Of a stretch of 64,000 bases of DNA, positions 1-18,240 are shown piece after piece; within the stretch, counting starts at the first letter, position 1, and each line of letters starts with the position of its first letter. Made by a program: the position numbers and the translations under genes. Source of the DNA: an uncultured Fibrobacteraceae bacterium (GTDB lineage Bacteria > Krumholzibacteriota > Krumholzibacteriia > LZORAL124-64-63); assembly GCA_964559455.1 (NCBI GenBank), contig CAZLHO010000006.1, positions 17,627-81,626 of the forward strand, read 5' to 3'. Under the pieces are notes generated by a model. The model did not search any database. It had not been told where the DNA came from and was given only the letters and a program-made list of their open reading frames with translations.

Positions 1-150
1 CTGGTCGAGCGCGTGGCCCGGGTGCTGGGCGACGCCGAGCACGCCCGCGTCCTGGGCGAGGCCGGCCGCGAGCGGGCGCGGCGGCTCTACGCTTTTCCCC
101 GGATGCTGGACGAGTTGGAGGGCTACTTCACGGAATTGATGGAGGCCTAG
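1..150 (+). CDS. C-terminal fragment of a group-1 glycosyltransferase (5' end lies outside the window)
   Basis: Frame 1 translates to ...LVERVARVLGDAEHARVLGEAGRERARRLYAFPRMLDELEGYFTELMEA*. This is the typical C-terminal tail of GT4 enzymes. It converges on the hemA stop. Confidence 0.45.
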   Translation: MVERVARVLGDAEHARVLGEAGRERARRLYAFPRMLDELEGYFTELMEA

Positions 151-2360: not shown

Positions 2361-3809
2361 TCAGTCGTCCCTTCTCGTGCGCGCGGGCGCGGCGGCGCCC
2401 AGGTGGTCCAGCACCGCGGCGGCGGTCCGCTCCGCCTCGGCGACGCAATGGTTGACGGCGATGCCCCGGTACGAGCTGCCGGTCAGGAAGAGGCCCGGAT
2501 GCTCCGCCAGTCGCCGGGAGACGGCGGCCAGCCGGGCCAGGTGGCCGGGCCGGTACTGGGCGATGGCCCGCGGCCAGCGCACGATCCAGCTGCGCTCGGG
2601 CTCGCCGTGCAGGCCGTAGAGGGGGGTCAGCTCCTCCAGGCAGATCCGGCGCAGGGCGTCGTCGTCCAGGTCCAGGATGTCGGGATCGGCGGCACCGCCG
2701 GCCATGCAGCGCAGCAGGACCCGGTCCCGGGGGGCGCGGCCGGTGAAGATGCTCGAGGACCAGAGCACGCCCAGCAGACGGCGGCCGGCCCGGGTGGGGT
2801 TGAGCATGCCGAAGCCGGAAAGGGGATGGTCGACGGCCGCGCGCGGGTAGGCGAGCACGATCACGGCCATCGGCGCGTAGGGGATCCCGGCCAGCAGGCC
2901 GGTCAGCTCGGCGTCGTCGAGGTGGCCGGCCGCGGCGTGGGCCGGCGCGGTGTTCACCACGGCGGCGAAAGGCCCGTGCTCGCGGCCGTCCGCGGCCACG
3001 GTCCAGCCCTCCGGCCCCCGGCGCAGCGCGGTGACGGGCGCTCCGGTCAGGACCTCGCCCCGCAGCGCGGCCGCCACGGCCCGCGGCAGCTCGACCATGC
3101 CGCCCCGGAAGCTGTGCAGGACGCCGCTGGGTCCGGGCGAGGCCTCTCCCGCGCCGCTGCGTTTCCGCTCGCGTTGCAGCTTGAAGAGCGCCCGGAAGAG
3201 GCCGCCGTGGTCGCGTTCGAGCTCGACCATGCGCGGGAAGGCCGAGGCCAGGCTCAGGCGCCGGGCGTCGCCCCCGAAGACGCCCTTGACCATGGGGTCC
3301 AGGAAGTTCTCGGCGAACTCGCGGCCCAGCCGGCGCACGCCGAAGTCGTAGACGGTCTCGTCGGTGGCGGGATCCTCGGCGGCGCGCCCCAGGTCGCGGC
3401 GCGGCGGCCGCAGCAGCTCGGTCGCGACGCGCAGCTTGCCGGGCCAGCTCAGGGTGCCCGAGCGCAGGAAGGCCGGCGGGCTCATCGGCATCTCCTGCAC
3501 CTTGCCGTCGATCAGCAGGAAGCGGTGGCGCGTGGCGTCCTCGCTGCGCTGCAGGGCGTCGCCCAGGCCGACGCGCTCGACCAGGCGCAGGGTGGCGGGC
3601 TCGCTGTCCAGGAAGCCGTTGGGGCCCTCCTCGAGCTGGAAATCGCCGTCGCGGATGGTGCGCAGGTTGCCGCCGACCGCGGGCGCCGCCTCGAAGACGG
3701 TCACGCGCAGGGGCAGGCCTCGCGCTTCGGCTTCGCGCTCGAGGTCGAAGGCGGTGGCCAGTCCGGCGATGCCGCCGCCGACCACGGCGACCGATAGGGT
3801 CTCAGGCAT
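2361..3809 (-). CDS. hemY: protoporphyrinogen/coproporphyrinogen oxidase, FAD-dependent (HemY/PPOX family)
   Basis: N-terminal FAD-binding fold (VAVVGGGIAGLATA). ~480 aa, a typical PPOX length. Lies within the heme operon. Confidence 0.85.
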   Translation of the reverse strand: MPETLSVAVVGGGIAGLATAFDLEREAEARGLPLRVTVFEAAPAVGGNLRTIRDGDFQLEEGPNGFLDSEPATLRLVERVGLGDALQRSEDATRHRFLLIDGKVQEMPMSPPAFLRSGTLSWPGKLRVATELLRPPRRDLGRAAEDPATDETVYDFGVRRLGREFAENFLDPMVKGVFGGDARRLSLASAFPRMVELERDHGGLFRALFKLQRERKRSGAGEASPGPSGVLHSFRGGMVELPRAVAAALRGEVLTGAPVTALRRGPEGWTVAADGREHGPFAAVVNTAPAHAAAGHLDDAELTGLLAGIPYAPMAVIVLAYPRAAVDHPLSGFGMLNPTRAGRRLLGVLWSSSIFTGRAPRDRVLLRCMAGGAADPDILDLDDDALRRICLEELTPLYGLHGEPERSWIVRWPRAIAQYRPGHLARLAAVSRRLAEHPGLFLTGSSYRGIAVNHCVAEAERTAAAVLDHLGAAAPARTRRDD

Positions 3810-4935
3810 GGTCCGTCTCCTTGTCGCGCCCGGCGGCGACGGCCGCGGGGGCGAAGGCGGTGACGTCCAGGTGCTCGGCCAGGGAGTCGAGCCACCCCGC
3901 GTCCAGGTTCAGGGCCGGCGGACGCACGAACTCGGCGACGCCGGCCCGTGCGGTCTCCTCGCGCAGTTCGATGTCCAGTTCGTGCAGGGTCTCGATGTGC
4001 TCGCAGGTGAAGCTCAGCGGCAGCACGCAGAGCCGCCGGCAGCCGGAGGCCGCCAGCCGCTCGGCCTCGGCGGTCAGTTCGGGACCGATCCAGCGCACCG
4101 GGCCCACCTTGCTCTGGAAGGCCAGCAGGGGCCGCGATCCGCCGGGAAGGCGCTTCCACCAGTCGCCCAGGTCGGCGCCCAGGCGCGAGGCCAGCTCTCC
4201 GTTCAGGGCGGCCATCGTGGCCCGGGTCTGCGACAGGTAGGGATCGCCGCGCTTCAGGAAGCGCTCGGGCAGCGAGTGGGCCGTGCCCAGCAGGGCGCAT
4301 TCGGCGGGATCCCGGCCCTCGGCGTGCCAGCGCCTCAGCACGGGCTCGGCGCGGTCGGCCAGGGCCCGGACGTAGCCGGGCAGCAGGTGCCATTCGGGCA
4401 GCACGTAGACGGCCAGTCCCGGCGCCAGCCGGGTCACGGCCCGCTGCAGGTCGCCCATGACGCTGCCGGTCGTCGCACTCGCGAACTGGGGATAGGCCGG
4501 CACGGCCAAAATCTGTCGCGCGCCGCCTTCCAGCAGCTCGGCCAAGCCCTCCCCCGGGAAGGGATGCCAGTAGCTCATGATCGGTGTCGCCCGCAGGCTG
4601 CGGCCGCGCGCGCGCAGGCGCTCCTCGAGGGCCTCGCACTGCCGCTGCGCCCACTCCAGCTGGGGCGAGCCGCCGCCGTGGCCGATCTCGCGGTAGCGCT
4701 GCTTCACGGCCTCCAGGCGCCGGCGGACGATCAGCCAGCCCACCATGCGGTTGAAGGGGGCCGGGATCGGCAGCACCGCGGGGTCGCGGAAGAGGTTGTG
4801 CAGGAAGGGGGCCACCGAGTCGGGCCCGTCGGGCCCGCCCAGTCCCGCGAAGACGAGGCCCGTGGGCAGGGACGGGTCCAGGGGATGCCGCGCCAGCCGC
4901 TGCAGGTCCTCGTGTCGGGTCAGGCGAGGGACCAT
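3802..4935 (-). CDS. hemH: ferrochelatase
   Basis: Ferrochelatase fold motifs (YPQF.SATTGS; H in AHSLP...). 377 aa. Overlaps hemY by 8 nt. Confidence 0.85.
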   Translation of the reverse strand: MVPRLTRHEDLQRLARHPLDPSLPTGLVFAGLGGPDGPDSVAPFLHNLFRDPAVLPIPAPFNRMVGWLIVRRRLEAVKQRYREIGHGGGSPQLEWAQRQCEALEERLRARGRSLRATPIMSYWHPFPGEGLAELLEGGARQILAVPAYPQFASATTGSVMGDLQRAVTRLAPGLAVYVLPEWHLLPGYVRALADRAEPVLRRWHAEGRDPAECALLGTAHSLPERFLKRGDPYLSQTRATMAALNGELASRLGADLGDWWKRLPGGSRPLLAFQSKVGPVRWIGPELTAEAERLAASGCRRLCVLPLSFTCEHIETLHELDIELREETARAGVAEFVRPPALNLDAGWLDSLAEHLDVTAFAPAAVAAGRDKETDHA

Positions 4936-4950: not shown

Positions 4951-6327
4951 TCAGATCGTCTTCGAGAAGATCGGCCGGTCGCCCGCCCGGTCCAGGTACG
5001 CGTCGAATTCCATGCAGATGTTGCGGACGAAGAAGCGTCCGAGCTCGGTGACCGAGATCCGGTCGTCCGTCCGCTCCAGGAAGCCCTCGGCCACGAAGGG
5101 ATCCATCCGCGCCAGCTCCGGGGCCAGGGCGTCGGCGACGCGGGCGCCGCCGTCGCCGGGGCGCAGATCGAAGGGCAGTTCCAGGTTGCACATCAGGTTC
5201 AGGATGGCGTCGCGGCGCAGGACGTCGTCGGGGCTCAGGCGGTGGCCGCGCACCACGGGCAGGCGGCCGTCGTCGACGCCCTGCTGGTAGCCCTGCAGGC
5301 CGGCGTCGTTCTGGACGAAGGAGCCCGCCACCTCGCCGATGCTGCTCATGCCGAAGGCCAGCATGTGCGGGGCGGGACGCGTGGTGTAGCCCATGAAGTT
5401 GCGGTGCAGCCGCCGCTCGCGCAGGGCCACGGCCAGCTCGTCGTCGCGCTTGGCGAAGTGGTCCATGCCCACCCAGTCGTAGCCGGCCTCGGCGAAGGTG
5501 TCGATGGCCAGCTGGAAGAGGGCGAACTTGGCGTAGGGATCGGGCAGCATGGTCTCGTCGATGAGCTTCTGGTGCGGCTTGACCCAGGGCACGTGGGCGT
5601 AGCTGAAGCAGGCGACGCGGTCGGGGCCCAGGTCGATGATCGAGCGCAGCGTGCGCGCGAAGGATTCGGCCGTCTGGCCGGGCAGGCCGTAGACCAGGTC
5701 CAGGTTCACGCTCTCGAAGCCGAGGTCGCGGCAGGCCCGGAAGAGCTCGACGGTGCGCTTCTCGGACTGCAGGCGGCCGATCGCCTTCTGGACGTCCTTC
5801 TCGAAGTCCTGCACGCCGAAGCTGATGCGGTTGAAGCCCAGCTCGCGCAGCATGGCCATCTGTTCGGTCGAGCCCACGCGCGGGTCGCATTCGATGGACA
5901 GCTCGCCCGCGGGATCGACGGCGAAGGCGTCGCCGATCAGGTTCCAGGCCCTGGCGATCTGCTCGGGCCGGGGGTAGTTCGGCGTGCCGCCGCCCCAGTG
6001 CAGCTGCACGACGCGGCGGCCGGTCCCGAGGACGTCGACGACCATGGCCAGCTCGCGCTCGACCCGGTCCAGGTAGCTGTCGACGACGTTCCTGTCGCCG
6101 GCGATCTCGGAGTTGCAGCCGCAGTAGTGGCAGTGCTTCACACAGAAAGGCAGGTGCAGGTAGACGGACAGCTCGTCGCCGGGCAGGCCGGCCAGCCGCT
6201 CCAGGGCCTCGCGGTAGTCCTTCTCGCCGAAGTCGGCGTTCCAGACGGGCACCGTCGGGTAGCTGGTGTAGCGCGGACCGGGCTTGTTGTAGCGGTCCAG
6301 CATCTCGCGGGGCACGGGAACGGTCAT
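4951..6327 (-). CDS. hemN: oxygen-independent coproporphyrinogen III oxidase (radical SAM)
   Basis: Radical-SAM CxxxCxxC (CVKHCHYC). Full-length 458 aa with the HemN N-terminal extension and an LDLVYGLPGQT motif. Its start overlaps the hemE stop. Confidence 0.9.
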   Translation of the reverse strand: MTVPVPREMLDRYNKPGPRYTSYPTVPVWNADFGEKDYREALERLAGLPGDELSVYLHLPFCVKHCHYCGCNSEIAGDRNVVDSYLDRVERELAMVVDVLGTGRRVVQLHWGGGTPNYPRPEQIARAWNLIGDAFAVDPAGELSIECDPRVGSTEQMAMLRELGFNRISFGVQDFEKDVQKAIGRLQSEKRTVELFRACRDLGFESVNLDLVYGLPGQTAESFARTLRSIIDLGPDRVACFSYAHVPWVKPHQKLIDETMLPDPYAKFALFQLAIDTFAEAGYDWVGMDHFAKRDDELAVALRERRLHRNFMGYTTRPAPHMLAFGMSSIGEVAGSFVQNDAGLQGYQQGVDDGRLPVVRGHRLSPDDVLRRDAILNLMCNLELPFDLRPGDGGARVADALAPELARMDPFVAEGFLERTDDRISVTELGRFFVRNICMEFDAYLDRAGDRPIFSKTI

Positions 6328-7364
6328 GCCTGGTCTCCCGGTCGGTAGCTCTGGACGGTCTCGACCAGCGTCTCGACCGCGGGGATGGGCGTGGGCGGCA
6401 GGATGCCGTGGCCCAGGTTGAAGACGTGGCCCGGCGCGTCGTCGCCGGCGCGGCAGATGGCCAGGGCGCGACGGCGGATCTCCTCGGGCGTGCCGAAGAG
6501 CGCCAGCGGGTCGAGGTTGCCCTGGACGGGGCGGCCCAGCGCGGCGGCGGCCGAGCCCAGGTCGAGGGTCCAGTCCAGCCCGAAGCCCTCGGCGTCCAGG
6601 GTCTTCACGTGGTCCAGGAAGGGCGCCGAACCCTTCAGGAAATAGATGCGCGGCACGCCGGCGTCCTTCAGCCCGTCCAGGATCCGGCGGATGCCCGGCA
6701 GCACCATGGCCTCGTAGTCGGCCGGGTGCAGGATGCCGCCCCAGGTGTCGAAGACCTGCACTGCGTCCACGCCGGCCTCGACCTGCATCTTCAGATAGTC
6801 GAGGACCTGGTCGGCCAGCTTGTCCAGCAGCGCGCGCAGCAGGTCGGGCCGCGCGTAGAGCATGGTCTTCAGGTGGCGGAAGTCCTTGCTGCCGCCGCCC
6901 TCGATCATGTACGAGGCCAGGGTCAGCGGCGCGCCGGCGAAGCCGATCAGCGGCGTCTTATCGCCGAGCTCGCCCTTGATCATGCGGACGGCGTCGGCGA
7001 CGTAGGCGGTGTGCTCGCGCGAGTCGACCACGCGCAGGGCCTTGACGGCGGCCTCGTCGCGGATGGCCGTGACCATCTTCGGGCCGCCGTCGCCGAAGGT
7101 GAAGGGGGCGCCCATGCCCTCCAGCGGCACCAGGATGTCGCTGAAGAGGATGGCGGCGTCGAAGCCGAAGCGGCGGATGGGCTGCAGCGTCACCTCGCAG
7201 GCCAGCTCGGGGGTCTTGCAGACCTCGACGAAGGAGTGCTGCGCCCGCACGGCCATGTACTCGGGCAGGTAGCGGCCGGCCTGGCGCATGATCCAGATCG
7301 GGCGGCGGGCGGGCTTCTCGCCGCGCAGCGCGGCCAGGTAGGGGGAGCCGTTTGTCTCGGTCAT
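6324..7364 (-). CDS. hemE: uroporphyrinogen decarboxylase
   Basis: PIWIMRQAGRYLPEY N-terminal signature. Start set to the internal ATG at 7364 (MTETNGS...), preceded by a GAGGA RBS. Confidence 0.9.
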   Translation of the reverse strand: MTETNGSPYLAALRGEKPARRPIWIMRQAGRYLPEYMAVRAQHSFVEVCKTPELACEVTLQPIRRFGFDAAILFSDILVPLEGMGAPFTFGDGGPKMVTAIRDEAAVKALRVVDSREHTAYVADAVRMIKGELGDKTPLIGFAGAPLTLASYMIEGGGSKDFRHLKTMLYARPDLLRALLDKLADQVLDYLKMQVEAGVDAVQVFDTWGGILHPADYEAMVLPGIRRILDGLKDAGVPRIYFLKGSAPFLDHVKTLDAEGFGLDWTLDLGSAAAALGRPVQGNLDPLALFGTPEEIRRRALAICRAGDDAPGHVFNLGHGILPPTPIPAVETLVETVQSYRPGDQA

Positions 7365-7518: not shown

Positions 7519-8367
7519 TTGCGGCGGTCGATTCAGGGCATGATGCACGCCCTGAACCTGAAACGAGCGGGCCTTCCGGCCCTGATCTCCGCGGTCGCGC
7601 TGACGATCCTGATCGCGGCCGTCGCCGCGCCCGGCACCGGAGCGCGGGAAGGCGCGCCGGCCGCGCACCGGGAACTGGAATGCGGCACCTGCCACGCCCC
7701 TCGAGCGGAGGCCGTGACCGCCGCCGCCGGCCGCATCGCTCCGGCCCGACGTTCCTGCCGGGCCTGCCATGTGCTCGCCGACCGGACCGACGCGACGGCC
7801 ACGAACTTCCACGACGACGACGGGCGCGACTGCCGCGACTGCCACTCCTTTCACGAGCCGGCCCGGCTGCGGGCGGGCGAGGTGGAGTTCGTCTACGCCT
7901 ATCGGGATGAGGACCTGCGCGAACAGTGCGCCTCGTGCCACGGGCAGGACGGGGATCTGGCCCTGCTGTCGCCGGGGCACCGCGAGGCGGGCAGGAGCCT
8001 CTACCACGTCGACGCCTACCGGCTGGCGAGGCTCTCGCCCTCGGACGGTTGCCTGCGCTGCCATGACAGCGGAGGCGAGGCCGCGGGCGAGGGCGGAGCG
8101 CCGGCCTTCGCGGGCCACCAGGGACATCCCCTGGGCGTGACCGTGCCTCTGGGGCGCGGCACGCCCGGCAACCACATCCGACGGAGCCTGGATCCGCGCA
8201 TTCCCCTCTACTCGGATCGGATCGAATGTCAGACCTGCCACCTGATGGGCGACGAGCGACCGGATCTGCTGGGGCGTTTCGCCGAATCCTACGATCTTTG
8301 CCTCGGCTGCCACGAGCAGCCCTTCCGGCCGCGCGCCGGCGATCTGAGGCTGGCCTCCGTCCGCTGA
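7519..8367 (+). CDS. multiheme c-type cytochrome (7 CxxCH), membrane-anchored or secreted
   Basis: N-terminal hydrophobic segment. CxxCH motifs: CGTCH, CRACH, CRDCH, CASCH, CLRCH, CQTCH, CLGCH. Confidence 0.8.
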   Translation: MRRSIQGMMHALNLKRAGLPALISAVALTILIAAVAAPGTGAREGAPAAHRELECGTCHAPRAEAVTAAAGRIAPARRSCRACHVLADRTDATATNFHDDDGRDCRDCHSFHEPARLRAGEVEFVYAYRDEDLREQCASCHGQDGDLALLSPGHREAGRSLYHVDAYRLARLSPSDGCLRCHDSGGEAAGEGGAPAFAGHQGHPLGVTVPLGRGTPGNHIRRSLDPRIPLYSDRIECQTCHLMGDERPDLLGRFAESYDLCLGCHEQPFRPRAGDLRLASVR

Positions 8368-8375
8368 CGCGCGAC

Positions 8376-8397
8376 GGCCGCGCCTGACGGCGCGGCC
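8376..8397. terminator. GC hairpin between convergent cytochrome genes
   Basis: GGCCGCGCC-tgac-GGCGCGGCC: perfect 9-bp stem with a 4-nt loop, lying between the stops at 8367 (+) and 8425 (-). Confidence 0.35.
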
Positions 8398-8424
8398 GCG
8401 CGATATCCCGGCGATCGTTTCCCT

Positions 8425-9645
8425 CTATTTCTTGTGACAGGTCACGCACAGATCCATGTTCGGATCCAGCGGCAGATACTGCGGGAAATCGGCGCCGTGC
8501 AGCTGGTGACAGCTGAGGCAGGTCACCGGTTCCCCGGTCCGCTCGTCGATGACGTCCGGACCCACCGGATGCGAGGAGCGGTGGGCGGCCACGTGGCAGT
8601 CGGCGCAGGCCGCGACCGCGTCCGCGGTGAGAAAGGCAGTCTCGGGCGAGCCGTGGGGCACGTGGCATTCGGTGCAGTCCATGCCGTCGTGGGTCGCGTA
8701 CATCGCCTTGGGCTTCTCGGCCGTTCCCTCGAAGTGACAGCGCATGCAGAGCACGCCCTGCGGGGCCGACAGCAGCCCGGCGCCGTCGGCGGCGTGGGGG
8801 GCGTGGCAGTCCGTGCAGGAGCTCTCGTGGTCGAGGTGGCCGTTGTAGTCGGTCTCGAGATCGGCCTGCACGCCGCGATGGCAGCGAAGGCAGAGCGCGC
8901 GACCGTCGCCGGCGATGGCGAAGCCCGCGTCGGGGGCCGGATCCCCATGGCAGGTCTTGCAGTTTCCGCCCGCGAAGGGGGCGTGCCTGTTCTCGCGCAG
9001 GAGGCCCGGGAGCTCCGCCGCGTGGGGCGCGTGACAGGTCGTGCAGTCGGAGGCGCTCAGGTCTCGGCCCTGGTGCGTGCCCGCGAAGCCGGCGCCTCCG
9101 TCGTGGCAGGTGAAACAGAGTCCGGGCACGTCCCGGACCAGGATGCCGGGATACGCCGAGCCGTGGGGCGCGTGGCAGGCGCCGCAGTCGCCGTCGGCTA
9201 CGGGGGCGTGGGGATGGGGCCGCTCGGTCCAGCCGGCGGCCACGGGATGGCAGGAGGCGCAGAGATCCGCGGTGGCGCGGCGCAGCTGGTCGGGATGGTC
9301 CGAGGCGTGGGGGTCGTGACAGGAGCCGCAGGCGCCCTCGCGGACCGGGGCGTGAGGCGCGGCAGGATCCGCCGCCGCGATGTCGTCGTGGCAGCGGGCG
9401 CAGAGCCGCGCGGGCTCCTCCCCCAGCAGGGCCGCGTGGCGCGAGGCGTGGGGGTTGTGACAGGCCGAGCAGCGGCCGTCGGCGAAGACCGTGTGGCGGT
9501 GCCGGGCGGAATCCAGCGCGCCGATGTCGGCGTGGCATTCCAGGCAGACGCCGGGCTCGTCGACGGGCGCGATCGCGCCGGCGCTCCCGGCGGCGAAGGC
9601 CGCGGAAGACAACAGAAGGCCCAGGAGGCGTATCCGGCGGTTCAT
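8425..9645 (-). CDS. multiheme c-type cytochrome, 16 CxxCH, secreted
   Basis: Start ATG at 9645 (MNRRIRLLGLLLSSAAFAAG, a signal peptide). I count 16 CxxCH motifs in ~406 aa (e.g. CLECH, CSACH, CARCH, CGSCH, CASCH, CGACH, CFTCH, CTTCH, CKTCH, CLRCH). The upstream extension of the ORF to 10704 is frame shadow. Confidence 0.85.
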   Translation of the reverse strand: MNRRIRLLGLLLSSAAFAAGSAGAIAPVDEPGVCLECHADIGALDSARHRHTVFADGRCSACHNPHASRHAALLGEEPARLCARCHDDIAAADPAAPHAPVREGACGSCHDPHASDHPDQLRRATADLCASCHPVAAGWTERPHPHAPVADGDCGACHAPHGSAYPGILVRDVPGLCFTCHDGGAGFAGTHQGRDLSASDCTTCHAPHAAELPGLLRENRHAPFAGGNCKTCHGDPAPDAGFAIAGDGRALCLRCHRGVQADLETDYNGHLDHESSCTDCHAPHAADGAGLLSAPQGVLCMRCHFEGTAEKPKAMYATHDGMDCTECHVPHGSPETAFLTADAVAACADCHVAAHRSSHPVGPDVIDERTGEPVTCLSCHQLHGADFPQYLPLDPNMDLCVTCHKK

Positions 9646-11621
9646 GGTCGACCTCCCTCGGCGCCGGGATGACAGATGTCGCAGGCGCCGCTCGAGAACG
9701 GATCGTGCGCGTTGCGCTGGATCAATCCGGCCGTGCTCGCGGCGTGGGGGTCGTGGCAGTGACGGCAGTCCAGCTCTTCGCCGGCGACGCCGAGGTGCAG
9801 GGCGCGGAAGTCGGCGTCGTCCCCGTCGTGGCAGTCGAGGCATTGGCCGGGCACCGCGGCGGCGAGCAGGGTGGCTTCGTCGCTCAGGTGCGGCAGGTGA
9901 CAATCGAGACACGAACCCTCGGCCGCCGGGGCGTGGGCCTCCTGCGTGGCGATGCGCTCGGCCAGCTCGCCGTGGCAGGTGGCGCAGAGGTCGGCGGGAG
10001 CGAGAGGCAGCAGCCCTCGGAGTCCTCCCGCGTGCGGCAGATGGCAGGCGGTGCAGTTCCCCGCCACGTAATCGGGGTGGGCGCTGGTCGCCGCCGCCGC
10101 CGCCCCGGAATCGTCGTGACAGTCGGCGCAAAGCGACGCCTGGGACCGCAGGAGCAGCCCGTCGTGGCCGGCCGCGTGCGGAGCGTGGCAGCCGCCGCAG
10201 TCGGCGTCTGCGAACGGCGGATGGACGACCGCCATGTCGGATGCGGCCATCTCGGACTCGTGGCATCGCGCGCAGAGGTCGTCGCCCGAGGCCCGCAGCA
10301 GGGCGGTCTCGGCCGAGGCGTGGGCGGCGTGGCACGCGTCGCAGCCGTCGGTCTGCAGAGGCTTGTGGACGCTGCGGCTGCGCAGCCAGCCGTCGGCGTC
10401 GTCGTGACAGCCGGAGCAGAGGTCGAAGCTGTCGGCGACCGAGAGCGCGGGAAAGTCCGAGCCGTGGGGAAGGTGGCAGTCCAGGCAGGATCCGCCGGCG
10501 AAGGCGGCGTGGGCTCCGGGCGACTCCATCTCGACCCTCTGGCCGGCGTGGCAGCCCAGGCAGAGCTCGTTGACGTCTCCATCCACCAGGTGGTCGCCGA
10601 CGCGGCCGTGGGCCTGGTGGCAGAGAGTGCAGTCGCGGCCGACGGGATCGTGGCCCGAGGGCTTGTGCAGGGATTCCTCGACGTGGTCGTGGCAGTCCAG
10701 GCACAGCTCCGTCGCCGGCCTTGCCAGCAGGGCCGCCCTGGGCGAGCCGTGCGGATCGTGGCAGGAGGTGCAGGCGCCGTCCGCCACCGGAGGGTGGGGG
10801 TCTTCACCGGCCATCTCGTCGGCGTCGTGACAGACGAGGCAGAGCGTGTCGGCGTCGTTTTCGTTCAGGGCGAAGGGCCGATCCCCTTCCGGGTCGGCGT
10901 GGCAGGAGGCGCAGTCGCCGTCGGCCACCGGGCCGTGGATCGAGGCGCGCAGGAGCGACCTGGAATCGGAGGAGTGGGGGGAGTGGCAGGTGCCGCATCC
11001 GTCTGCGGGGACGGCATAGCCGCTGTGCGCCTGGACGACGGAACGATCCCCGATGTCGTGGCATTGGGTGCAGAGGTCGCCTGCGGGCAGGCGCAGCAGG
11101 CCGGGCTGGTCGCCGCCATGGACGACATGGCAGGAGGCGCAACCCTCCTCGAGGGGAGGATGCCTGTGTTCGAGGCGGAAGGCCCCGGCGTCGTGGCAGG
11201 TGAAGCAGAGATCGCCCTGGGGCGCGGGCAGCAGGCCGGCGTTGTCGGCGGCGTGGGGGTCGTGGCAGGTTTCGCAAAGCCCCCGGGCGGCGGGCTCGTG
11301 GAGGAATGCCCCGTCGAGGCCCAGCGCGGCGTCCTCGTGGCAAAGGCGGCAGAGGGCGCGCCCCGTCTCTTTGAGCCGCAGGGCGCCGACCAGGCCGTGG
11401 GGCTTGTGGCAGTCGCCGCAGCGCTTCTGGGCGAAGGGCTCGTGACGGACCCGGCCGTCGATATCGGCCAGTTCGTGGCAGCCGAGGCAGCCGCCGTCGT
11501 CGCCGAAGCGGCGGCCGCGCTTGATCTGGGCCTCGGCTTCCGGAGGCAGACAGGCGGTCGCCGCCAGTAGCACGGCCGCGAGGATCGGCCAGCGGCGGGG
11601 GATCGGGAATCGCAGGGCCAT
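9642..11621 (-). CDS. multiheme c-type cytochrome, 26 CxxCH, paired-CxxCH repeat architecture, secreted
   Basis: Signal peptide (MALRFPIPRRWPILAAVLLAATA). 26 CxxCH in 659 aa, arranged as ~13 tandem units of the form L-CxxCH-D...(18-22 aa)...CxxCH-xPH. The stop overlaps the start of the 16-heme gene (ATGA). Confidence 0.85.
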   Translation of the reverse strand: MALRFPIPRRWPILAAVLLAATACLPPEAEAQIKRGRRFGDDGGCLGCHELADIDGRVRHEPFAQKRCGDCHKPHGLVGALRLKETGRALCRLCHEDAALGLDGAFLHEPAARGLCETCHDPHAADNAGLLPAPQGDLCFTCHDAGAFRLEHRHPPLEEGCASCHVVHGGDQPGLLRLPAGDLCTQCHDIGDRSVVQAHSGYAVPADGCGTCHSPHSSDSRSLLRASIHGPVADGDCASCHADPEGDRPFALNENDADTLCLVCHDADEMAGEDPHPPVADGACTSCHDPHGSPRAALLARPATELCLDCHDHVEESLHKPSGHDPVGRDCTLCHQAHGRVGDHLVDGDVNELCLGCHAGQRVEMESPGAHAAFAGGSCLDCHLPHGSDFPALSVADSFDLCSGCHDDADGWLRSRSVHKPLQTDGCDACHAAHASAETALLRASGDDLCARCHESEMAASDMAVVHPPFADADCGGCHAPHAAGHDGLLLRSQASLCADCHDDSGAAAAATSAHPDYVAGNCTACHLPHAGGLRGLLPLAPADLCATCHGELAERIATQEAHAPAAEGSCLDCHLPHLSDEATLLAAAVPGQCLDCHDGDDADFRALHLGVAGEELDCRHCHDPHAASTAGLIQRNAHDPFSSGACDICHPGAEGGRP

Positions 11622-11665
11622 GGCTCCACCTCTGCGTCCCCGGGCGCGGCCCGGGGCGTCGTGAT

Positions 11666-13297
11666 CTAGGAATCTCCGGCGAAGTAGCGTTCGATCCGGT
11701 CGTCATGGCGGACGATCGTCGATCGCTCCTTCAGCAGGGACAAATGCTCGTCCATGAGCGCATCGAACTTGCGCTGGAACACGGCCTCGCGGATCGGCAT
11801 CTCGACTTCCTCGATGCTCCTGGGCTGGCCCTGCCGGCGCCCGCGCAGCTTGAAGACCATCCAGCCGGAGGGGATCTTCACGGGCGAACTCACGTCGCCT
11901 TCCTTCATCTCGGCCAACTGCTCCTTCATGGAGCCGGAGAATACATTCTCCGGTGACCAGCTGGGCTCGCCGCCGCCGCCGGCCTTCAGCAGGTCGCGGA
12001 CGAAATCGATGTCGCCGCCTGCCGCCAGGCGCGCGGCCGCGTCGGCGGCCGTCGCCTCGTCATCCAGGACGATCACGTCGAGAAGAACCTCCTCCGGCCC
12101 GCGGAAGCGGTCCAGGTTCTCCCGGTAGAAGGCGTCGAACTCTTCGCGACTGAAAACGATCTCCGGCACGATGATCTCGTTCAGGTACATGTTGATCAGC
12201 ATCTCGCTCCGCTTGTCCCGGACCAGCTTCGCGACGGCCGGGTCGTCCAGCAGGCCGCGCCGGGCGGCGGCGGCCCGCAGGATCAGGTCGTGGCGGACTT
12301 CGTCGCAGCCGCGCCCGTAGAGCTCGTTGAAGCCGGCGTTGCGCAGGTCCATCTGACCCTTGGCGATCGCCCGGCGCAGATCCTTCTCGGTGACGGCCCT
12401 GACGCCGGGGGCGCTGAAGGCCGGTGCGGACCCTCCCTCCATGAACGCGGCGGTTCCCATAGCCGCGGAGTCCCCCCTGACCCTTTCCAGGATCGCGGCG
12501 TTGCGCAGCAGGGGCGCCTCGGCGTCCAGATCCTCCAGGAAGGTCTTCCAGGCGGCCTCGCGCTTCTCGACCGCGTAGTAGCGGCGGATACGTGGCAGGG
12601 CCGCAGCGAAGGCCGTCTCGTCGGGGTCCAGCTTCTGCTCGACGCGAAGGACCGAGAAGATGTTGTGGAAGGGGAAGACCTGGCTGAGCTCGCCCTGGCG
12701 CGTGGCCTCGGCGGGCCCGCGAAGCTGGGGATGGAGGTCGCCCCAGATCACGAGATCGCGGAGGCCGCCCTCGTGGCGCCGGTTGTCCACGGAAACGGAC
12801 ATGGCCAGGCTGTCCATCGGGGCGCCGGCGAGCAGCGCTTCGCGGAGCTTCCCGGCGTCCTCGGCGGTGCGCGCGGAGATCTGGCGCACCTGGATCCGGC
12901 GATAGTAGGTCCGCCAGTATTCCTGGATCTCCTCGTCCGAGATCTCGATCTCGGGGTCGAAGGCCCGGGAGGCGAACGCGGAGGCGGCGGCCGATTCCCT
13001 CATCTCGGCGAGCTCGTCGACGAGGGCCGGTTCCTCGCCCATGCCCATCGCCTCGGCCTGCTGCAGCAGCAGCAGGTCGTTGACCGCCTTGTCCAGGAGC
13101 TTGCCCAGGAAGGCCGCGTTCATGCGCTCCGCTCCGCCGGAGGCGTGCGCCGCCATCACCATGTCGTCCATGGTCGCCGCCGTGATCGCATCGCCGTTGA
13201 TGGTGATCAGCGTGTCGCCGGGCGCGTCGGCGGCGAAGGAGAACACCGGCAGCAGGAGCAGCAATACGGCCGCCGGCAGAAGACGATGCGGGGTCAT
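11666..13297 (-). CDS. periplasmic peptidyl-prolyl cis-trans isomerase, SurA/PpiD-like (parvulin domains)
   Basis: Signal peptide. SurA-like N-terminal chaperone region plus parvulin-type rotamase segments (IQVRQISARTAEDAGKLREALLAG...; second domain VLLDVIVLDDEATAADAAARL...). Confidence 0.7.
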   Translation of the reverse strand: MTPHRLLPAAVLLLLLPVFSFAADAPGDTLITINGDAITAATMDDMVMAAHASGGAERMNAAFLGKLLDKAVNDLLLLQQAEAMGMGEEPALVDELAEMRESAAASAFASRAFDPEIEISDEEIQEYWRTYYRRIQVRQISARTAEDAGKLREALLAGAPMDSLAMSVSVDNRRHEGGLRDLVIWGDLHPQLRGPAEATRQGELSQVFPFHNIFSVLRVEQKLDPDETAFAAALPRIRRYYAVEKREAAWKTFLEDLDAEAPLLRNAAILERVRGDSAAMGTAAFMEGGSAPAFSAPGVRAVTEKDLRRAIAKGQMDLRNAGFNELYGRGCDEVRHDLILRAAAARRGLLDDPAVAKLVRDKRSEMLINMYLNEIIVPEIVFSREEFDAFYRENLDRFRGPEEVLLDVIVLDDEATAADAAARLAAGGDIDFVRDLLKAGGGGEPSWSPENVFSGSMKEQLAEMKEGDVSSPVKIPSGWMVFKLRGRRQGQPRSIEEVEMPIREAVFQRKFDALMDEHLSLLKERSTIVRHDDRIERYFAGDS

Positions 13298-14379
13298 TCG
13301 GAAACCTCCGGAACGGGCGGGGCGGAACGAACCATCTCATCCAGGAAGGCATCGGCGAAGTCGAGGGCCAGTTCTCCGAGCGACGATCGCCGGACCGCGC
13401 CGAAGAGGAATTCGCCTCCCGGTCCCGCGAATTCGTACTCGCGCGCGACCAGGATGCGGCCGTCGCCGGCGTCCAGCATCCTGGCGCCGAAGGCGATCGC
13501 GGGTTCCGGGGCCAGGGAATCGCCGCCGAAAACATCGAAGCGGTCGATCTCGCCGGTGACGACCACATCGACGCCCAGATCGTCGTGCAGGGCGCTCAGG
13601 GTCTGCAGATCGATTCCTCCCCGTGGGGCGACCTGTTTATCCTGGAACAAGAAATTAGCAATCCCAGGCTCTATAACAAGATAGCCCCTGGACACCAGGC
13701 GAGAAAGAAGAAAATCCACCAAAACGGTGGCTGATTCGGCAGGGACCTCTCCCGTGAATGAGAAGGGCACCAGGGCGACAGTCGTTCGCGGGCGCTCGGG
13801 CGGGGGCGAAGGGGTCGAGAAGGACGGGGCGAGGGCGTCGACGAGTTCCGTGACCGCCACCGCCGCCAGTTCCGTGAGGGTCTCGGGCATGCCGACGCCG
13901 AAGAGTCCGACCAGATCCGGAGCCGCGATCGCCCGGGATTCGGCGGCGATCACCCGTGCGGTCGCGGGGTCGAGCAGGCGCAGGGAGACGGCGATCTCGA
14001 GCGCGGGTCGCTCGCGATAGATCCCGACGGTCCCGGTCAGCAGCAGCCCGGCGCCGGTCTCGGCTGCCACGAGGCGAGCTCCCTCGCGGTCGACCATGCC
14101 CACGGCCCGGATCCGGTGGCGTCGCAGGACGGGGCGGATCTCCCGCTCGGCGAGGAATGGCACCCCCCGCTCGGCCAGCGCCGCGTGGAGCAGCATCACG
14201 ACGGTGTCGCGGGCGGCCGCCGCGCCGGTGGGGTTGGCCAGCGGCAGCAGGGCCAGGGTGGCTCCCGTGGCGGGCCCGTCCCCGGAATCCGGAGGCGCGG
14301 ATTGCGCACACGCCGGTGCTCCCGCCAGCAGCAGGGCCGCCAGGAACAGGACGAGGGGATGAAGCCGTGCGCGCGTCAT
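13294..14379 (-). CDS. secreted protein with two tandem CsgG/LpoB-like (TolB-N-like) domains
   Basis: Signal peptide. Two repeats each carrying an LPFxNxTG ... LLTG/VVTGEI pattern (TLALLPLANPTG...LLLTGTVGIY and TVALVPFSFTGE...VVVTGEIDRF). ATGA overlap with the PPIase gene. Confidence 0.45.
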   Translation of the reverse strand: MTRARLHPLVLFLAALLLAGAPACAQSAPPDSGDGPATGATLALLPLANPTGAAAARDTVVMLLHAALAERGVPFLAEREIRPVLRRHRIRAVGMVDREGARLVAAETGAGLLLTGTVGIYRERPALEIAVSLRLLDPATARVIAAESRAIAAPDLVGLFGVGMPETLTELAAVAVTELVDALAPSFSTPSPPPERPRTTVALVPFSFTGEVPAESATVLVDFLLSRLVSRGYLVIEPGIANFLFQDKQVAPRGGIDLQTLSALHDDLGVDVVVTGEIDRFDVFGGDSLAPEPAIAFGARMLDAGDGRILVAREYEFAGPGGEFLFGAVRRSSLGELALDFADAFLDEMVRSAPPVPEVSE

Positions 14380-14386: not shown

Positions 14387-14965
14387 TCAGTCGATCAGGG
14401 TGTCGAGGCAACGCGCCACGCAGCGGCGGGTGACTTCGCTGCGGGATTTCTGGGCGGTGCCGAAGAGTGTCGACCAGAAGCCGCGGCTGTCCTCGGTATG
14501 GGTGGCCGACCAGACCGTGATGCCGGTCTCGCACTCCACGAGCCGGGTGTCGAGAGTGACCACGGATTCCGCTCCGGAGCCGCCGCGCGACGACCCCGAT
14601 TCGCTGACCGTGGCCAGGAACAGGCCCTGGACCTGGAGTTCGCGGCCGACGGCGACGATGTCCTCCCGGGTCATCTGGGCGGTGCTGGTCCAGCCGCGCT
14701 CCAGCAGGGCGCGCTGGACCTCTCCGGGCTCGACGACGTCGAAGACCTCCGCCGCCAGCAGTTCGGTCAGGAAGATGCGCGTCGCACGCGCTCCCGCCCC
14801 CTGGTCGGTCGTCAGGTTCTCGAAGGGGACGACGGCGACCTTTTCCAGGAAACCGAAGTTGTACTCCGGGTGCAGGAAGGTTGTCGGAGCCAGGCCCGCG
14901 CAGCCCGCGCAGGCCAGCAGCGCCGCCAGAAGGCCCGTCGCCATGATCTTCTTCATGCTCACCAC
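14387..14965 (-). CDS. lipoprotein with a single CsgG/LpoB-like domain
   Basis: Lipobox LLAC. VAVVPFENLTTDQG...ELLAAEVFDVVE is characteristic of the LpoB/CsgG N-domain fold. Confidence 0.5.
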   Translation of the reverse strand: MVSMKKIMATGLLAALLACAGCAGLAPTTFLHPEYNFGFLEKVAVVPFENLTTDQGAGARATRIFLTELLAAEVFDVVEPGEVQRALLERGWTSTAQMTREDIVAVGRELQVQGLFLATVSESGSSRGGSGAESVVTLDTRLVECETGITVWSATHTEDSRGFWSTLFGTAQKSRSEVTRRCVARCLDTLID

Positions 14966-14977: not shown

Positions 14978-17074
14978 TCAGAAGCCGATGCGGAGGCCCT
15001 GCTGGAGCGTGTTCCGCTCCTGGCCTCCCGCCTCGCTGTAGTCCAGCTCCGAGTACCTGATGTAGAGGTTGCTCCTGGGACTCAGATTGTAGTTCAGGTT
15101 CGCGCTGAATTGCACGGTCCTGACGTTCTCCGCCTCGAGTATGTAGGCCTGCCCGGTCAGGGACGCCTTTGGGATCGGGGTCCAGCTCAACAGATAATTC
15201 TGCGAGACGTTGTCCTGCCGGTCGTCGACCAGGTTCAGGCTGCCGCGCATGTGGACGGTGCGGCTGAGGCGGAGGTCGCCCGAGAATTCCATGTCGCGTC
15301 GGACCCGGGCTTCTGGCTCGGAGGCGACGTCGGTGCGCCGCACTCCGAAGCCGAGGGTCACGATGAAGGAGGAGGCCAGGGGGCCGCTCAGGCGGCTGCG
15401 GGCGGACCAGGTGTCGGTGACGCCGCCGGCCGCATCCAGGTCGGAACGGACGTAGCCGGCGTCGATGGAGGCCGTGAGCAGCCGCAGGGGGCTGCCGTCG
15501 GCGCCCGCCGAGAGGGAGTGGTAGAGCTGCGTGCGCTCGCCGTCGACCCGCTCTTCGCGGCGCGAGGCCGAGAATCGGGAGGAGAGGGTCGGCAGCGGGC
15601 GGGCGACCACGCCGTAGCTCAGGGAGCGCGAGTCCAGATCCTGGACGGCGCCGCCGGCGCTCTGCCGCGACCAGGTTCCGCCGAGGGAATGCTCAACGAA
15701 CCCGCCCTGGCGCACGTTCAACCGCAACGAGGCGTCGGCGTTCCGGCGACCGTCCGGCAGGCTGCCTCCCTGCTGGTAGAGGTAGGAGCCGCCGCCCGAG
15801 ATTTTAACGCGGTCGGAAAGGAGGTAACGGGCGGAGAGATCGGCCAGGTGCATGTCCTCGCTACGCGTCTCGCGACGGACGCCGGGACGGGGCAGGAAGA
15901 CCTGGATCTCGGTGACCAGCGCCCGGGCCACCTCGTTGACGCCCCGGCTGACGGCCTTCACGTAGCGTGCGCTCACGGCCTGGAAGGTGATCTCGTAGCG
16001 GCGCTGCGCGGGATTGAAGACGAAGGCGGGGAAGGCCTGCGCCTCGGTCCAGACCTCGTTGTCGGCGGAGACGTAGACGCTCCATTCCAGACCGCTGCCG
16101 GACACCCTGTCGGTGAAGACGTAGACGGCCGCGACCTCCCGGGCGAAGCCGAGGTCCACGCCCAGGTTCCAGTCGGCGCCGGCGCCGCCGAGGTCGATCT
16201 CCGGCAGGACCGGCGACCCGAGGTCGCCGTCGATCAGGGCGGGAGCCGGGGCCAGCGGATCGCGGTCCGGCGTCGGATCGAGCGCCCGCAGGCCGGCGGC
16301 CGGGATCAGCGTCTCGAGCAGGACGTCGCCGGTCAGCGACTCGTCCGTCATGCTGAAGCGCCGGTAGGTGTAGGTGCCGCCCAGCGACAGGCGGTCGTCG
16401 GCCAGTTCCCTCAGGTCGCCGACGATGCGGGCCCGGTGCTCGGTGCGGTCGCTCTGCAGGCCCGAAACGACGTTCTCCAGCCAGGCCCGGTTCAACGAGT
16501 AGGACAGCGATGTCCATCCCACGACCTGGTCGACCGAGGCGCGCAGCTGCTCGTTGCGCGTGTTCCGCCCGCCGACGGCGGTGCGGTCGAGGACCTCGTC
16601 CACGGAATAGTCCGCCCGCAGCAGGGGCAGGTCGGATCTCAGGGTCTGCAGCGAGAAGTGGGTGTTGTCCGCGACGAGGGTGCCCGGGGTGTCCGAGAGT
16701 TCGGTCTCCCGCCGACGCCAATCCGCGCCGAAGACGAAGTCCGGGTGGCGCCAGTCCAGTTCGGCGGCGGGCTGGAGCTCCTCGCGGCGGCTGTCCAGGG
16801 TCGGCCCCTGGTCGATGTCGTAGCGGTAATAGCGGAACGTGGCGCGGGCGGTCAGGCGGGGCAGGAAGGCGTGGCGCCAGGCGGCGAAATATTCCTGGCG
16901 AAGGGTGTCCTCTTCCCGGTCGGCCGTCTCGGTCTGGACGGCGGCGATGTCGACGCGGCCGCCGATGTCGGGCGCGGCCGCCGCCGACCCGCCGAGGAGC
17001 AGGAGGATCGGCGCCGCCGTGATCGACAGCCGGGCGAGGCGGTGCAGCGTTGAGGTCATCGGGATTCGATCCAC
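14978..17074 (-). CDS. outer-membrane beta-barrel protein with an inserted F5/8-type-C (discoidin)-like domain
   Basis: Signal peptide. Alternating amphipathic beta-strand pattern rich in Y/R/D. C-terminal ...LRIGF with a terminal Phe, as in OMPs. Internal ~120-aa segment (WSVYVSADNEVWTEAQAFP...YVKAVSRGV) resembles a discoidin domain. The true start may be the Met at 17059. Confidence 0.55.
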   Translation of the reverse strand: MDRIPMTSTLHRLARLSITAAPILLLLGGSAAAAPDIGGRVDIAAVQTETADREEDTLRQEYFAAWRHAFLPRLTARATFRYYRYDIDQGPTLDSRREELQPAAELDWRHPDFVFGADWRRRETELSDTPGTLVADNTHFSLQTLRSDLPLLRADYSVDEVLDRTAVGGRNTRNEQLRASVDQVVGWTSLSYSLNRAWLENVVSGLQSDRTEHRARIVGDLRELADDRLSLGGTYTYRRFSMTDESLTGDVLLETLIPAAGLRALDPTPDRDPLAPAPALIDGDLGSPVLPEIDLGGAGADWNLGVDLGFAREVAAVYVFTDRVSGSGLEWSVYVSADNEVWTEAQAFPAFVFNPAQRRYEITFQAVSARYVKAVSRGVNEVARALVTEIQVFLPRPGVRRETRSEDMHLADLSARYLLSDRVKISGGGSYLYQQGGSLPDGRRNADASLRLNVRQGGFVEHSLGGTWSRQSAGGAVQDLDSRSLSYGVVARPLPTLSSRFSASRREERVDGERTQLYHSLSAGADGSPLRLLTASIDAGYVRSDLDAAGGVTDTWSARSRLSGPLASSFIVTLGFGVRRTDVASEPEARVRRDMEFSGDLRLSRTVHMRGSLNLVDDRQDNVSQNYLLSWTPIPKASLTGQAYILEAENVRTVQFSANLNYNLSPRSNLYIRYSELDYSEAGGQERNTLQQGLRIGF

Positions 17075-17151: not shown

Positions 17152-18240
17152 CTACGGAACGACGACGACCTCGATGTGGTCGAACTCGTCCTTGTTGTGG
17201 CACTTGTTGCACAGCGAACGCTGGTTGGTGCTGTTGTACGGATCCGGAATCTCGTAGGAGCCGGACTCGTCGCCGTCCTCGTGCAGCAGCGTCACGCTGA
17301 AGTCCCACCGGCCGGCGTCCGGCGCCGAGGAGGCGTGGGCGCGGTGGCAGGAGATGCAGGAGACCTGGGCCGAGCCAGCGGGCGGGCCGCTGACCTGGTC
17401 GGTCGTGTTGTCGGGATGCTCGAAGGGAACCGCGGCCAGGTACGAGTCGTCCACGGTGGCGCCGCTCTGGTCCTCGGTGCCGTTGTAGCGGTTGTAGATC
17501 CCCTGGATGGTACCGCCCATGGCGCGGCCCGAGGGATGGATCAACGCTCCGCTGTTGTGGAAGTTGCCGTGGCAGTTCGCGCACCAGGCGCTCATCCCGC
17601 TCTTGTAGGCGGTGTGGTTGCTGTTGGACTCGAAGCCGCCGGACCACGGGAAGATCGAAAGGCCCTCCGCGTCGGGGGCCGCGTTCGCGAACACGGCGAC
17701 GCCGTCCTGGACGACCCGGTTGGCGCCGTACAGGAAGCGGAAGTCCGTGGTGCCGTGCGGGTCGTGGCAGCTGGTGCAGCCGAGATCCGCGGCCGCGAAG
17801 CCGCCGCCGGGAGCCGTGCTCAGCGTGGCGTCCGGATACAGGCCGTAACCGGGGGCGTTCAGGTTGTGGCCCGCGGCGTCGCCGTCGATCCAGTTCTCGA
17901 CCAGGTGGCCGTCGTGGCCGTCGTTCAGGTTGTCCTCCAGCAGGAAGACGAAGTTGCCCGCGCCCTTCAGGCCCGGAGGCGCCATGGGATCGGGATCGGT
18001 GATCGGGAAGGGCTGGTCGAGGTGATCGTGGCAGCCGATGCAGACCTCGCTGGGCGTGGCCTCGTTAAGCAGCCAGCTGTTCGGGCCGAAGTCGGGACCG
18101 ATCTGGTCGACCGTGACGCCGTCCTGGCTGTTGTGCATGGTGTGGCAGCCGCTGCAGTTGGCGACGCCGCCATCGTGGAACGCATAGGCCGGGAAGGCCA
18201 GCAGGCCGAGGCCGAGCGCGAGAAGGATGATCTTCCTCAT
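17152..18240 (-). CDS. multiheme c-type cytochrome (6 CxxCH), secreted
   Basis: Signal peptide MRKIILLALGLGLLAFPAYA. CxxCH motifs: CSGCH, CIGCH, CTSCH, CANCH, CISCH, CNKCH. Less Arg-biased composition than its neighbours. Confidence 0.8.
   Translation of the reverse strand: MRKIILLALGLGLLAFPAYAFHDGGVANCSGCHTMHNSQDGVTVDQIGPDFGPNSWLLNEATPSEVCIGCHDHLDQPFPITDPDPMAPPGLKGAGNFVFLLEDNLNDGHDGHLVENWIDGDAAGHNLNAPGYGLYPDATLSTAPGGGFAAADLGCTSCHDPHGTTDFRFLYGANRVVQDGVAVFANAAPDAEGLSIFPWSGGFESNSNHTAYKSGMSAWCANCHGNFHNSGALIHPSGRAMGGTIQGIYNRYNGTEDQSGATVDDSYLAAVPFEHPDNTTDQVSGPPAGSAQVSCISCHRAHASSAPDAGRWDFSVTLLHEDGDESGSYEIPDPYNSTNQRSLCNKCHNKDEFDHIEVVVVP

Follow-up and report, generated by a model that had tools for sequence, protein, structure and literature searches.

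What is the role of a cytochrome that carries 26 hemes on one polypeptide and is encoded immediately upstream of a second cytochrome that carries 16? The question is raised by a 64-kb stretch of DNA from an uncultured bacterium (contig CAZLHO010000006.1, positions 17,627 to 81,626; hereafter the window, to whose full length all coordinates refer). A secreted cytochrome c of 659 amino acids (aa) with MtrA-like paired-CxxCH modules is encoded there at 9642..11621 on the minus strand, and a 406-aa cytochrome c with 16 CxxCH motifs and its own signal peptide is encoded at 8425..9645 on the same strand. The first is of the OscI/OetB(HmlB)/GSU2495 type and the second of the OscJ/OetA(HmlA)/GSU2494 type. 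The answer that we favor, with some confidence, is that the 26-heme protein and its ATGA-coupled 16-heme partner form a conserved pair of MtrA-like heme wires, all of whose hemes have bis-His ligation, and that the two dock as a 42-heme path toward an OmcS-like cytochrome or other partners outside the cell.

The open reading frame (ORF) of the larger protein contains 26 CxxCH motifs, or one per 25.3 aa, with spacings that alternate between 23 and 25. The count is not a matter of chance, since a six-frame translation of the whole window yields only four ORFs with at least two CxxCH motifs, namely the 26-heme, 16-heme, 7-heme and 6-heme genes. The Pfam model Paired_CXXCH_1 (PF09699) matches the 26-heme protein in 12 stretches (E=1.6e-127; 415 bits against a cut-off of 20.6), and TIGR01905 matches it with E=1.1e-119 (390 bits against a cut-off of 25.2). 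This family (PF09699 / TIGR01905) is defined by tandem domains of ~41 aa with two CxxCH motifs apiece, and the 26-heme protein belongs to it. Read motif by motif, the protein alternates between two heme types, type A (L-CxxCH-D ... H-x-P) and type B (G-x-CxxCH-x-P-H ... LL), in the architecture [AB]x4 + B' + [AB]x8 + B'. There are 12 pairs, plus B-like single hemes at positions 9 and 26, and a count of 12 pairs, rather than 13, agrees with the 12 Pfam stretches.

The 12 modules have a mean pairwise identity of 36%, which becomes 23% when the invariant Cys and His columns are removed, versus 9.7 +/- 0.7% for shuffled sequences. Judged by these values, the modules are real but old. Exactly 26 histidines outside the motifs are conserved across 95 homologs, one for each heme, and conserved prolines adjoin the heme ligands in each module. 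One conserved distal His per heme fits hemes that are bis-His ligated and serve only in electron transfer. No extra or catalytic domain was found in a Pfam scan of the 26-heme protein, in which heme modules run from the signal peptide to the last residue. A catalytic multiheme enzyme was considered as a candidate and rejected, given the lack of such a domain and the conserved distal His for every heme.

A preliminary description of this DNA had proposed a heme-wire-like 26-heme cytochrome with one site per ~25 residues and about 13 paired modules, and had held that modules that do not align with each other, or a catalytic non-wire domain, would speak against it. The number and density of the heme sites agree with that proposal, the modules align above the level of shuffled sequences, so that the motif count is not coincidental, and no catalytic domain appeared. 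Its wire-like reading is likewise upheld by the end-to-end heme modules, the 26 non-motif histidines, the lack of any other domain and a single solved relative, MtrA. The module number needs correction, from about 13 pairs to 12 pairs and the two single hemes.

To which known cytochromes is the 26-heme protein related? Its sole sequence relative in the Protein Data Bank (PDB) is MtrA (6r2q_A, E=5.5e-25), and an AlphaFold2 model built on a 95-sequence alignment (pLDDT 90.1, pTM 0.70) retrieved only the same chain from the PDB in a Foldseek search (E=6.8e-07, TM 0.59 on target). The model predicts that the protein folds like MtrA; it would also work as MtrA does, without being a decaheme MtrA. 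It has in common with MtrA of the Shewanella MtrCAB complex (6R2Q chain A) the paired-CxxCH module, bis-His hemes, a low peptide content per heme and an elongated wire fold, and differs in having 26 hemes (16 in the partner) instead of 10 and 659 aa instead of the ~300-350 aa of MtrA/DmsE decahemes. TIGR03508 (DmsE/MtrA) does score 302 bits against a cut-off of 192, but only by way of seven overlapping partial repeat matches. Moreover, the adjoining outer-membrane protein, unlike that of the Mtr complex, has no MtrB_PioB Pfam match at E<=0.01 and no specific structural match, and the window cluster, unlike MtrCAB, has no decaheme of the MtrC/OmcA type. The protein thus stands outside the MtrA/DmsE decaheme family, which is marked by a ten-heme size and a partner of the MtrB/PioB family, neither of which is found here. 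MtrA residues 182-327 align collinearly with the C-terminal half of the 16-heme protein; the long spacer that precedes the final MtrA heme is shared, and the 16-heme protein then continues with one further heme. This end of MtrA is the one that faces outward in the 6R2Q structure.

Two other groups of heme-rich cytochromes were considered. The preliminary description had suggested kinship with c7/GSU1996-type polymers, and the 26-heme protein does resemble the GSU1996-type dodecahemes of Geobacter as a repetitive, 'nanowire-like' periplasmic multiheme cytochrome. The suggestion did not hold up, as Pfam Cytochrome_C7 scores only 82 bits in two stretches, compared with 415 bits for Paired_CXXCH_1, and no GSU1996 or c7 polymer matched the protein in the PDB at E<=0.001. 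Membership in the c7 polymers was rejected on these grounds and because the repeating unit has two hemes, not three. The second group is the PCC3 clusters of iron oxidizers, which encode cytochromes with medians of 21 and 34 hemes and a predicted porin, have been interpreted as trans-envelope wires, and are defined by a conserved five-helix inner-membrane protein with two HX13H motifs (He et al. 2017). The window cluster is similar in that very heme-rich, repetitive cytochromes adjoin a predicted porin, and differs from PCC3 (medians 21 and 34) in heme numbers and in companion genes. PCC3 membership was rejected, since no five-helix HX13H protein was found among the called genes from hemB to hemA, as read from the gene calls without transmembrane prediction.

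If the wire is built from repeats, its length might be expected to vary. The preliminary description had taken the DNA to be internally repetitive and had suggested that copy number may change by recombination. Direct repeats with a period of 141/144 nt are indeed present in the 26- and 16-heme genes, but they are only 60-80% identical, no tandem array was reported in the 26-heme gene by Tandem Repeats Finder, and the longest exact direct repeat across the two genes is 21 nt. Repeats that are so diverged, form no array and share so little exact sequence are therefore a poor substrate for homologous recombination. The heme number is also nearly constant. Among the best 120 homologs, 55 have 42 hemes, 39 have 26 and five have 16. 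A survey of 80 loci from species-representative genomes of many phyla included 67 with complete genes, of which 50 have the 26+16 pair and 11 have one 42-heme gene, 61 of 67 together. The remaining six are 25+16 (three loci, of which one contains masked bases and another a CxxxxCH variant), 24+18, 26+15 and 23+16 (one each), and most of these still total 41-42 hemes. The orthologs span more than 12 phyla, including Calditrichota, Ignavibacteria, Zixibacteria, Acidobacteriota, Myxococcota, Desulfobacterota and Nitrospirota; Rokubacteria, Gemmatimonadota, Krumholzibacteriia and Eisenbacteria also have 26+16 or 42-heme loci. In addition, the window DNA belongs to a metagenome scaffold (MUDA16-1_SAMN06140901; also JGI 3300029797), and seven contigs carry an identical 26-heme protein.

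These observations bear on the possibility that the protein is one of variable length, with a module number that drifts through recombination between the DNA repeats. Such a protein would account for the clade-level variants with 28, 30, 35 and 38 hemes among more distant relatives and for the one locus that divides the chain 24+18. It is very hard to reconcile with repeats that are 60-80% identical, without an array and with no exact match longer than 21 nt, with 61 of 67 complete loci at 26+16 or 42 and most others summing to 41-42, or with the same protein unchanged on seven contigs, and we give it almost no credence. Contrary to the suggested copy-number variation, the repeats are old and diverged, and the comparison of module number among orthologs, which the preliminary description had called for, gives a heme number that is fixed rather than variable across many phyla. 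Module number is therefore under strong constraint, and what is held constant seems to be the total of 42 hemes.

How, then, are the two proteins joined? The ATG of the 16-heme gene overlaps the TGA of the 26-heme gene (ATGA). The 3' end of the 26-heme gene also contains, by reading of the sequence, a Shine-Dalgarno sequence for the 16-heme gene (GGGAGG, 9652..9657, minus strand), 6 nt ahead of its ATG. The first unit of the 16-heme protein is [AB]x4 + B', as in the 26-heme protein. The translational coupling and the shared module that the preliminary description had noted are both supported. A frameshift artifact that split a single 42-heme gene was considered and rejected, because separate genes are the commoner arrangement and the 16-heme protein is equipped with a signal peptide and a Shine-Dalgarno sequence of its own.

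In other genomes the two cytochromes occur as one chain. The 42-heme proteins are collinear with the 26-heme and then the 16-heme protein, with the same spacing fingerprint (hemes 8 and 25 are each followed by a gap of 28 residues, and the series closes with 29/30-24), and in BLASTP alignments the 26-heme protein covers residues ~30-670 and the 16-heme protein, for most, ~680-1060. Such single proteins (P0001-P0058) are ~1050-1090 aa long and are common in Zixibacteria, Krumholzibacteriia, Latescibacterota, Gemmatimonadota and Eisenbacteria, and the loci that encode them are L036, L043, L057, L068, L069, L070, L076, L077, L080, L083 and L088. L076 has split and fused copies on one contig, and L060 is the 24+18 split. 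The natural fusion fixes the relative orientation of the two proteins and points to end-to-end docking, and the near-invariant total of 42 speaks for a length constraint. Together, the near-constant total and the fusion suggest that the 26- and 16-heme proteins dock end to end. No mention of the 42-heme form was found in the searchable literature, although it may already be described in Shen et al. 2025. The near-invariant total, the widespread fusion and the placement of the cluster inside a heme biosynthesis locus may be new.

The pair and its operon are already in the literature. Skennerton et al. (2017) described an operon in which a 26-heme cytochrome is next to a 16-heme one, with a four-gene core that adds a peptidyl-prolyl isomerase (PPIase) and a six-bladed propeller, in SEEP-SRB1, Desulfuromonadales, Geobacter, Anaeromyxobacter, Desulfurivibrio and Ca. 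Desulfofervidus, and all four core proteins were predicted to be soluble and periplasmic (PMC5539420). Murali et al. (2023) listed HmlA (16 hemes, periplasmic) and HmlB (26 hemes, extracellular) in their S6 table, named OetA/OetB with the barrel OetI in the main text, and described an oet cassette that also carries OmcS-like, OmcX and Apc2a genes (PMC10553843). For Geobacter sulfurreducens, PMC13194489 cites Shen et al. 2025 for GSU2495 as oscI and GSU2494 as oscJ of an omcS-companion operon, and for roles of OscH in folding, of OscE/F/G in secretion and of OscD in filament morphology. According to PMC12977616, the eight-gene block GSU2500-2493 always follows the OmcS-like gene GSU2501, and the two papers link the block to nanowire maturation and secretion.

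By sequence comparison, the pair in the window is the ortholog of this published 26-heme/16-heme pair (OscI/OscJ, OetB/OetA, HmlB/HmlA). Desulfobacterales bacterium C00003106, a Seep-SRB1g genome on which those papers drew, has counterparts of both: its 26-heme protein is 32% identical to that of the window over 649 aa (E=8e-121), and its 16-heme protein is 33% identical to the one here over 416 aa (E=4e-77); both alignments are full-length and match heme for heme. The 26-heme protein shares 32-35% identity with members of the Desulfobacterota and 54% with the closest genome of the species collection. The comparison with Geobacter was made on the Geobacter sp. loci L047 and L050, at a 35% match. 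All of the hallmarks of OscI/OetB (GSU2495-type) proteins are present, including 26 CxxCH motifs in ~650-700 aa, a 16-heme gene downstream, the core of PPIase and propeller, and full-length homology, and an OmcS-like hexaheme gene lies upstream of the block as in osc/oet. As in osc and oet, the 16-heme gene is directly downstream of the 26-heme gene, the PPIase gene is directly upstream, and an NHL propeller is encoded in the cluster; as in L047 and L050, genes for an OmcS-like hexaheme, a large outer-membrane protein and small lipoprotein-like products lie upstream in the same order. Orthologous proteins of ~695, ~192 and ~361 aa lie at the positions that OscEFG/OetI have in the Geobacter sp. 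loci and are candidates for the channel-like outer-membrane component; the model of the putative barrel has a pLDDT of only 63.8.

The window cluster nevertheless differs from osc in several respects. Only 92 nt separate the OmcS-like and outer-membrane genes, which leaves no gene of the size of OscD, for which we looked as a beta-propeller-like product of ~470 aa between those two genes; in L050 a 467-aa gene is found there. The NHL gene, which is downstream in osc, is here found upstream, heme biosynthesis genes surround the cluster, and the source is an uncultured bacterium with a GC content of 70-72%. The window therefore adds a new and distant member (32-54% identity) to a known set.

The partner that would receive or deliver electrons outside the cell may be encoded at 17152..18240 (minus strand), as a 362-aa hexaheme cytochrome of the OmcS family (GSU2501/OscC type) that matches OmcS (PDB 6ef8_A) over its full length with E=1.5e-39. 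The alignment of its mature N-terminus, FHDGGVANCSGCHTMHNS, with that of OmcS, FHSGGVAECEGCHTMHNS, is residue for residue and includes the His at mature position 16, which in OmcS filaments is the heme ligand between subunits. The hexaheme protein is a candidate nanowire subunit in an uncultured, high-GC bacterium.

The passage through the outer membrane would fall to the 693-aa protein at 14978..17059 (minus strand), in the OscE/OetI position, which is predicted to be a large beta-barrel with an F5/8-type-C-like insert. It has a signal peptide and a C-terminus of ...GLRIGF, and aligns end to end with six orthologs. Homolog searches returned 3-4 proteins, so that the AlphaFold2 alignment was shallow; the resulting model shows ~27 long beta strands at low confidence (pLDDT 63.8 from the 4-sequence alignment), and Foldseek matched it only to generic large outer-membrane barrels at TM ~0.2. 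Residues ~260-390 form an insert between two runs of long strands, with a weak F5/8-type-C or galactose-binding-like match (E=1.8e-05, below the Pfam cut-off), and the insert is the best-conserved part among seven orthologs of this type (LIDGN..DRN.G.DLGF...YVYTDR.SG...WSVYVS.DN).

How might these parts work together? One possibility, which we consider the best of those at hand, is that the C-terminus of the 26-heme protein docks onto the N-terminus of the 16-heme protein to give a single 42-heme electron path. The 16-heme part, in which the C-terminal half matches the outward end of MtrA collinearly, would probably lie in or at the outer-membrane channel, and the 26-heme part would extend into the periplasm. 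Electrons would then pass between the periplasmic or inner-membrane side and the OmcS-like cytochrome or other outside acceptors or donors, with the PPIase perhaps acting as the folding chaperone of the cluster. The 10 hemes of MtrA are reported to span ~8 nm (Edwards et al. 2020), or ~0.8 nm per heme. Scaled from this span, the lengths would be ~21 nm for 26 hemes, ~13 nm for 16 and ~34 nm for 42. On a bolder and rather doubtful extension, the conserved 42 hemes and head-to-tail docking would make the pair a molecular ruler, a wire of fixed length (~30-35 nm) that spans the Gram-negative envelope from the surface of the inner membrane, across the periplasm and the outer-membrane channel, to the base of an OmcS-type filament, and would supply the missing electrical link between the inner membrane and the nanowires. 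Few known proteins are as heme-dense as the 26- and 16-heme proteins, and these two accompany the one gene block that has so far been tied to OmcS-type nanowire assembly; the 42-heme total and the natural fusions could be turned into experiments on the delivery of electrons to extracellular nanowires.

A different topology has been proposed by Murali et al. (2023), in which the 16-heme protein is periplasmic and sits in the barrel and the 26-heme protein is an extracellular-facing lipoprotein, related to it as MtrC is to MtrA; OetA and OetB are assigned to the periplasm and the outside, respectively, in PMC10553843. The signal peptide of the 26-heme protein (residues 1-32) contains a lipobox-like LLAATAC, whose C24 is the only Cys outside the heme motifs, and a lipobox-like Cys is also present in 13 of 37 other 26-heme homologs. 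In the same signal peptide, AEA|Q is aligned with the site for signal peptidase I in the nearest relatives, so that lipidation is ambiguous. The lipobox is missing from 24 of 38 26-heme proteins and from 48 of 53 fused 42-heme proteins; lipidation is therefore not a family trait. The fusions also argue for a periplasmic 26-heme part, since it is N-terminal to the 16-heme part, the C-terminus of which is collinear with the outward-facing end of MtrA. We therefore regard a lipidated, surface-exposed 26-heme protein as unlikely.

It could also be argued that both giant cytochromes are a periplasmic store or buffer of electrons, a capacitor or general carrier outside any fixed trans-envelope path. 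The very high heme load of 42, the prediction in PMC5539420 that the four core proteins are soluble and periplasmic, and the failure of homologs to be induced in metal respiration would all be in keeping with such a role. A simple store would not be expected to have a near-invariant heme number and a fixed order in fusions, however, nor does it account for the tight and wide linkage of the genes to those for an outer-membrane protein, lipoproteins and an OmcS-like cytochrome, and we consider it improbable.

Several points weigh against the docked trans-envelope wire that we prefer. According to PMC5539420, no physiological role is known for homologs of the 26- and 16-heme proteins, and four cultured species did not express them while respiring metals. 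A frameshift in oscJ is carried by a Geobacter line that had evolved on an anode over a long term (PMC13194489), so that oscJ was dispensable under that condition. The localizations in the literature disagree, with both proteins periplasmic in the 2017 paper (PMC5539420) and the 26-heme protein an extracellular-facing lipoprotein in the 2023 paper (PMC10553843), and the 26-heme protein of the window carries both the lipobox-like LLAATAC and the AEA|Q signal-peptidase-I site. In addition, the barrel model is of low confidence and bears no specific similarity to MtrB, and the length figures are scaled from the span of MtrA.

The remaining genes of the block are also widely conserved. On the minus strand the order is hemB, hemL, the NHL propeller, the hexaheme protein, the outer-membrane protein, the 192-aa protein, the 361-aa protein, the PPIase and the 26- and 16-heme proteins, after which come the convergent 7-heme gene and then hem genes. 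The PpiC-type PPIase (543 aa; 11666..13297, minus strand; Pfam Rotamase_2, E=2.7e-25) occupies the OscH position. In two proteins, P0082 (857 aa) and P0113 (896 aa), a PpiC-type PPIase domain at the N-terminus is fused to a 22-23-heme cytochrome of the 26-heme family, a Rosetta-stone link of the operon isomerase to the giant cytochromes, besides OmcS. A secreted 361-aa protein in the OscG position (13294..14379, minus strand) has homologs in the same position in related loci and matched no Pfam family. In the OscF position is a putative 192-aa lipoprotein (14387..14965, minus strand) that is LpoB/CsgG-like, with a weak Pfam CsgG match of its own and orthologs that match LpoB/CsgG. The NHL-repeat protein (331 aa; 18372..19367, minus strand) is a six-bladed beta-propeller (Pfam NHL, E=6.8e-11; DUF5128, a 6-bladed propeller, also matches). 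Homologs were counted in 85 related loci, many of them cut by contig ends, and were found in 68 for the NHL propeller, 66 for the 192-aa protein, 64 for the PPIase, 56 for the 361-aa protein, 55 for the OmcS-like hexaheme and, with a profile hidden Markov model, 54 for the outer-membrane protein, Geobacter included. The same block order is found in the closest loci (L005 and L010) and in those of a member of the Desulfuromonadales (L007), a member of the Acidobacteria (L008) and a Geobacter sp. (L050). The convergent gene encodes a 274-aa cytochrome c with 7 CxxCH motifs and cytochrome Pfam matches (7543..8367, plus strand) and has homologs in the closest relatives only (6 of the 85 loci).

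The four cytochrome genes, with 55 heme sites among them, are flanked on both sides by genes for heme biosynthesis and cytochrome maturation. Identified from gene calls and Pfam, and with the coordinates of the hem genes converted as 21622 minus the position in locus L001, these are, all on the minus strand, hemE (6324..7364), hemN (4951..6327), hemH (3802..4935), a protoporphyrinogen-oxidase-like gene (2361..3809), a CcsA-like Cytochrom_C_asm gene (1484..2359) and hemA (147..1487) on one side, and a gene for a hemL-like class-III aminotransferase (19678..20973) on the other, with hemB (ALAD) further upstream, to ~21950. The placement of the cluster inside such a locus suggests a coordinated supply for the 55-heme operon. 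No flanking hem genes were seen on inspection of loci L005-L009.

A Shine-Dalgarno sequence, GGTGGAG (11624..11630, minus strand), precedes the 26-heme gene, and between it and the PPIase stop codon the sequence reads as a GC-rich hairpin, CCCCGGGC-CGC-GCCCGGGG (11638..11656, minus strand), with a perfect 8-bp GC stem, a 3-nt loop and no T run. The hairpin may act in mRNA processing or stability and in this way set how much chaperone is made relative to cytochrome. Between the convergent 16- and 7-heme genes, a GC-rich 18-nt unit occurs twice at 8364..8401, with the palindrome GCGCGGCCGCGC, and is probably a bidirectional terminator.

Elsewhere, an Rfam scan of the whole window gave no match. 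A low-GC island at 42298..44850 (plus strand), with 51% GC as opposed to ~72% in the rest of the window, encodes an 850-aa protein in which a TPR-like N-terminus, a sigma-54 AAA+ enhancer-binding domain and a Fis-type helix-turn-helix can be read by eye; the island looks to have been acquired horizontally. Finally, the AT skew is -0.19 to -0.26 at 26001..30000, 48001..50000 and 54001..56000, compared with ~0 elsewhere in the window.

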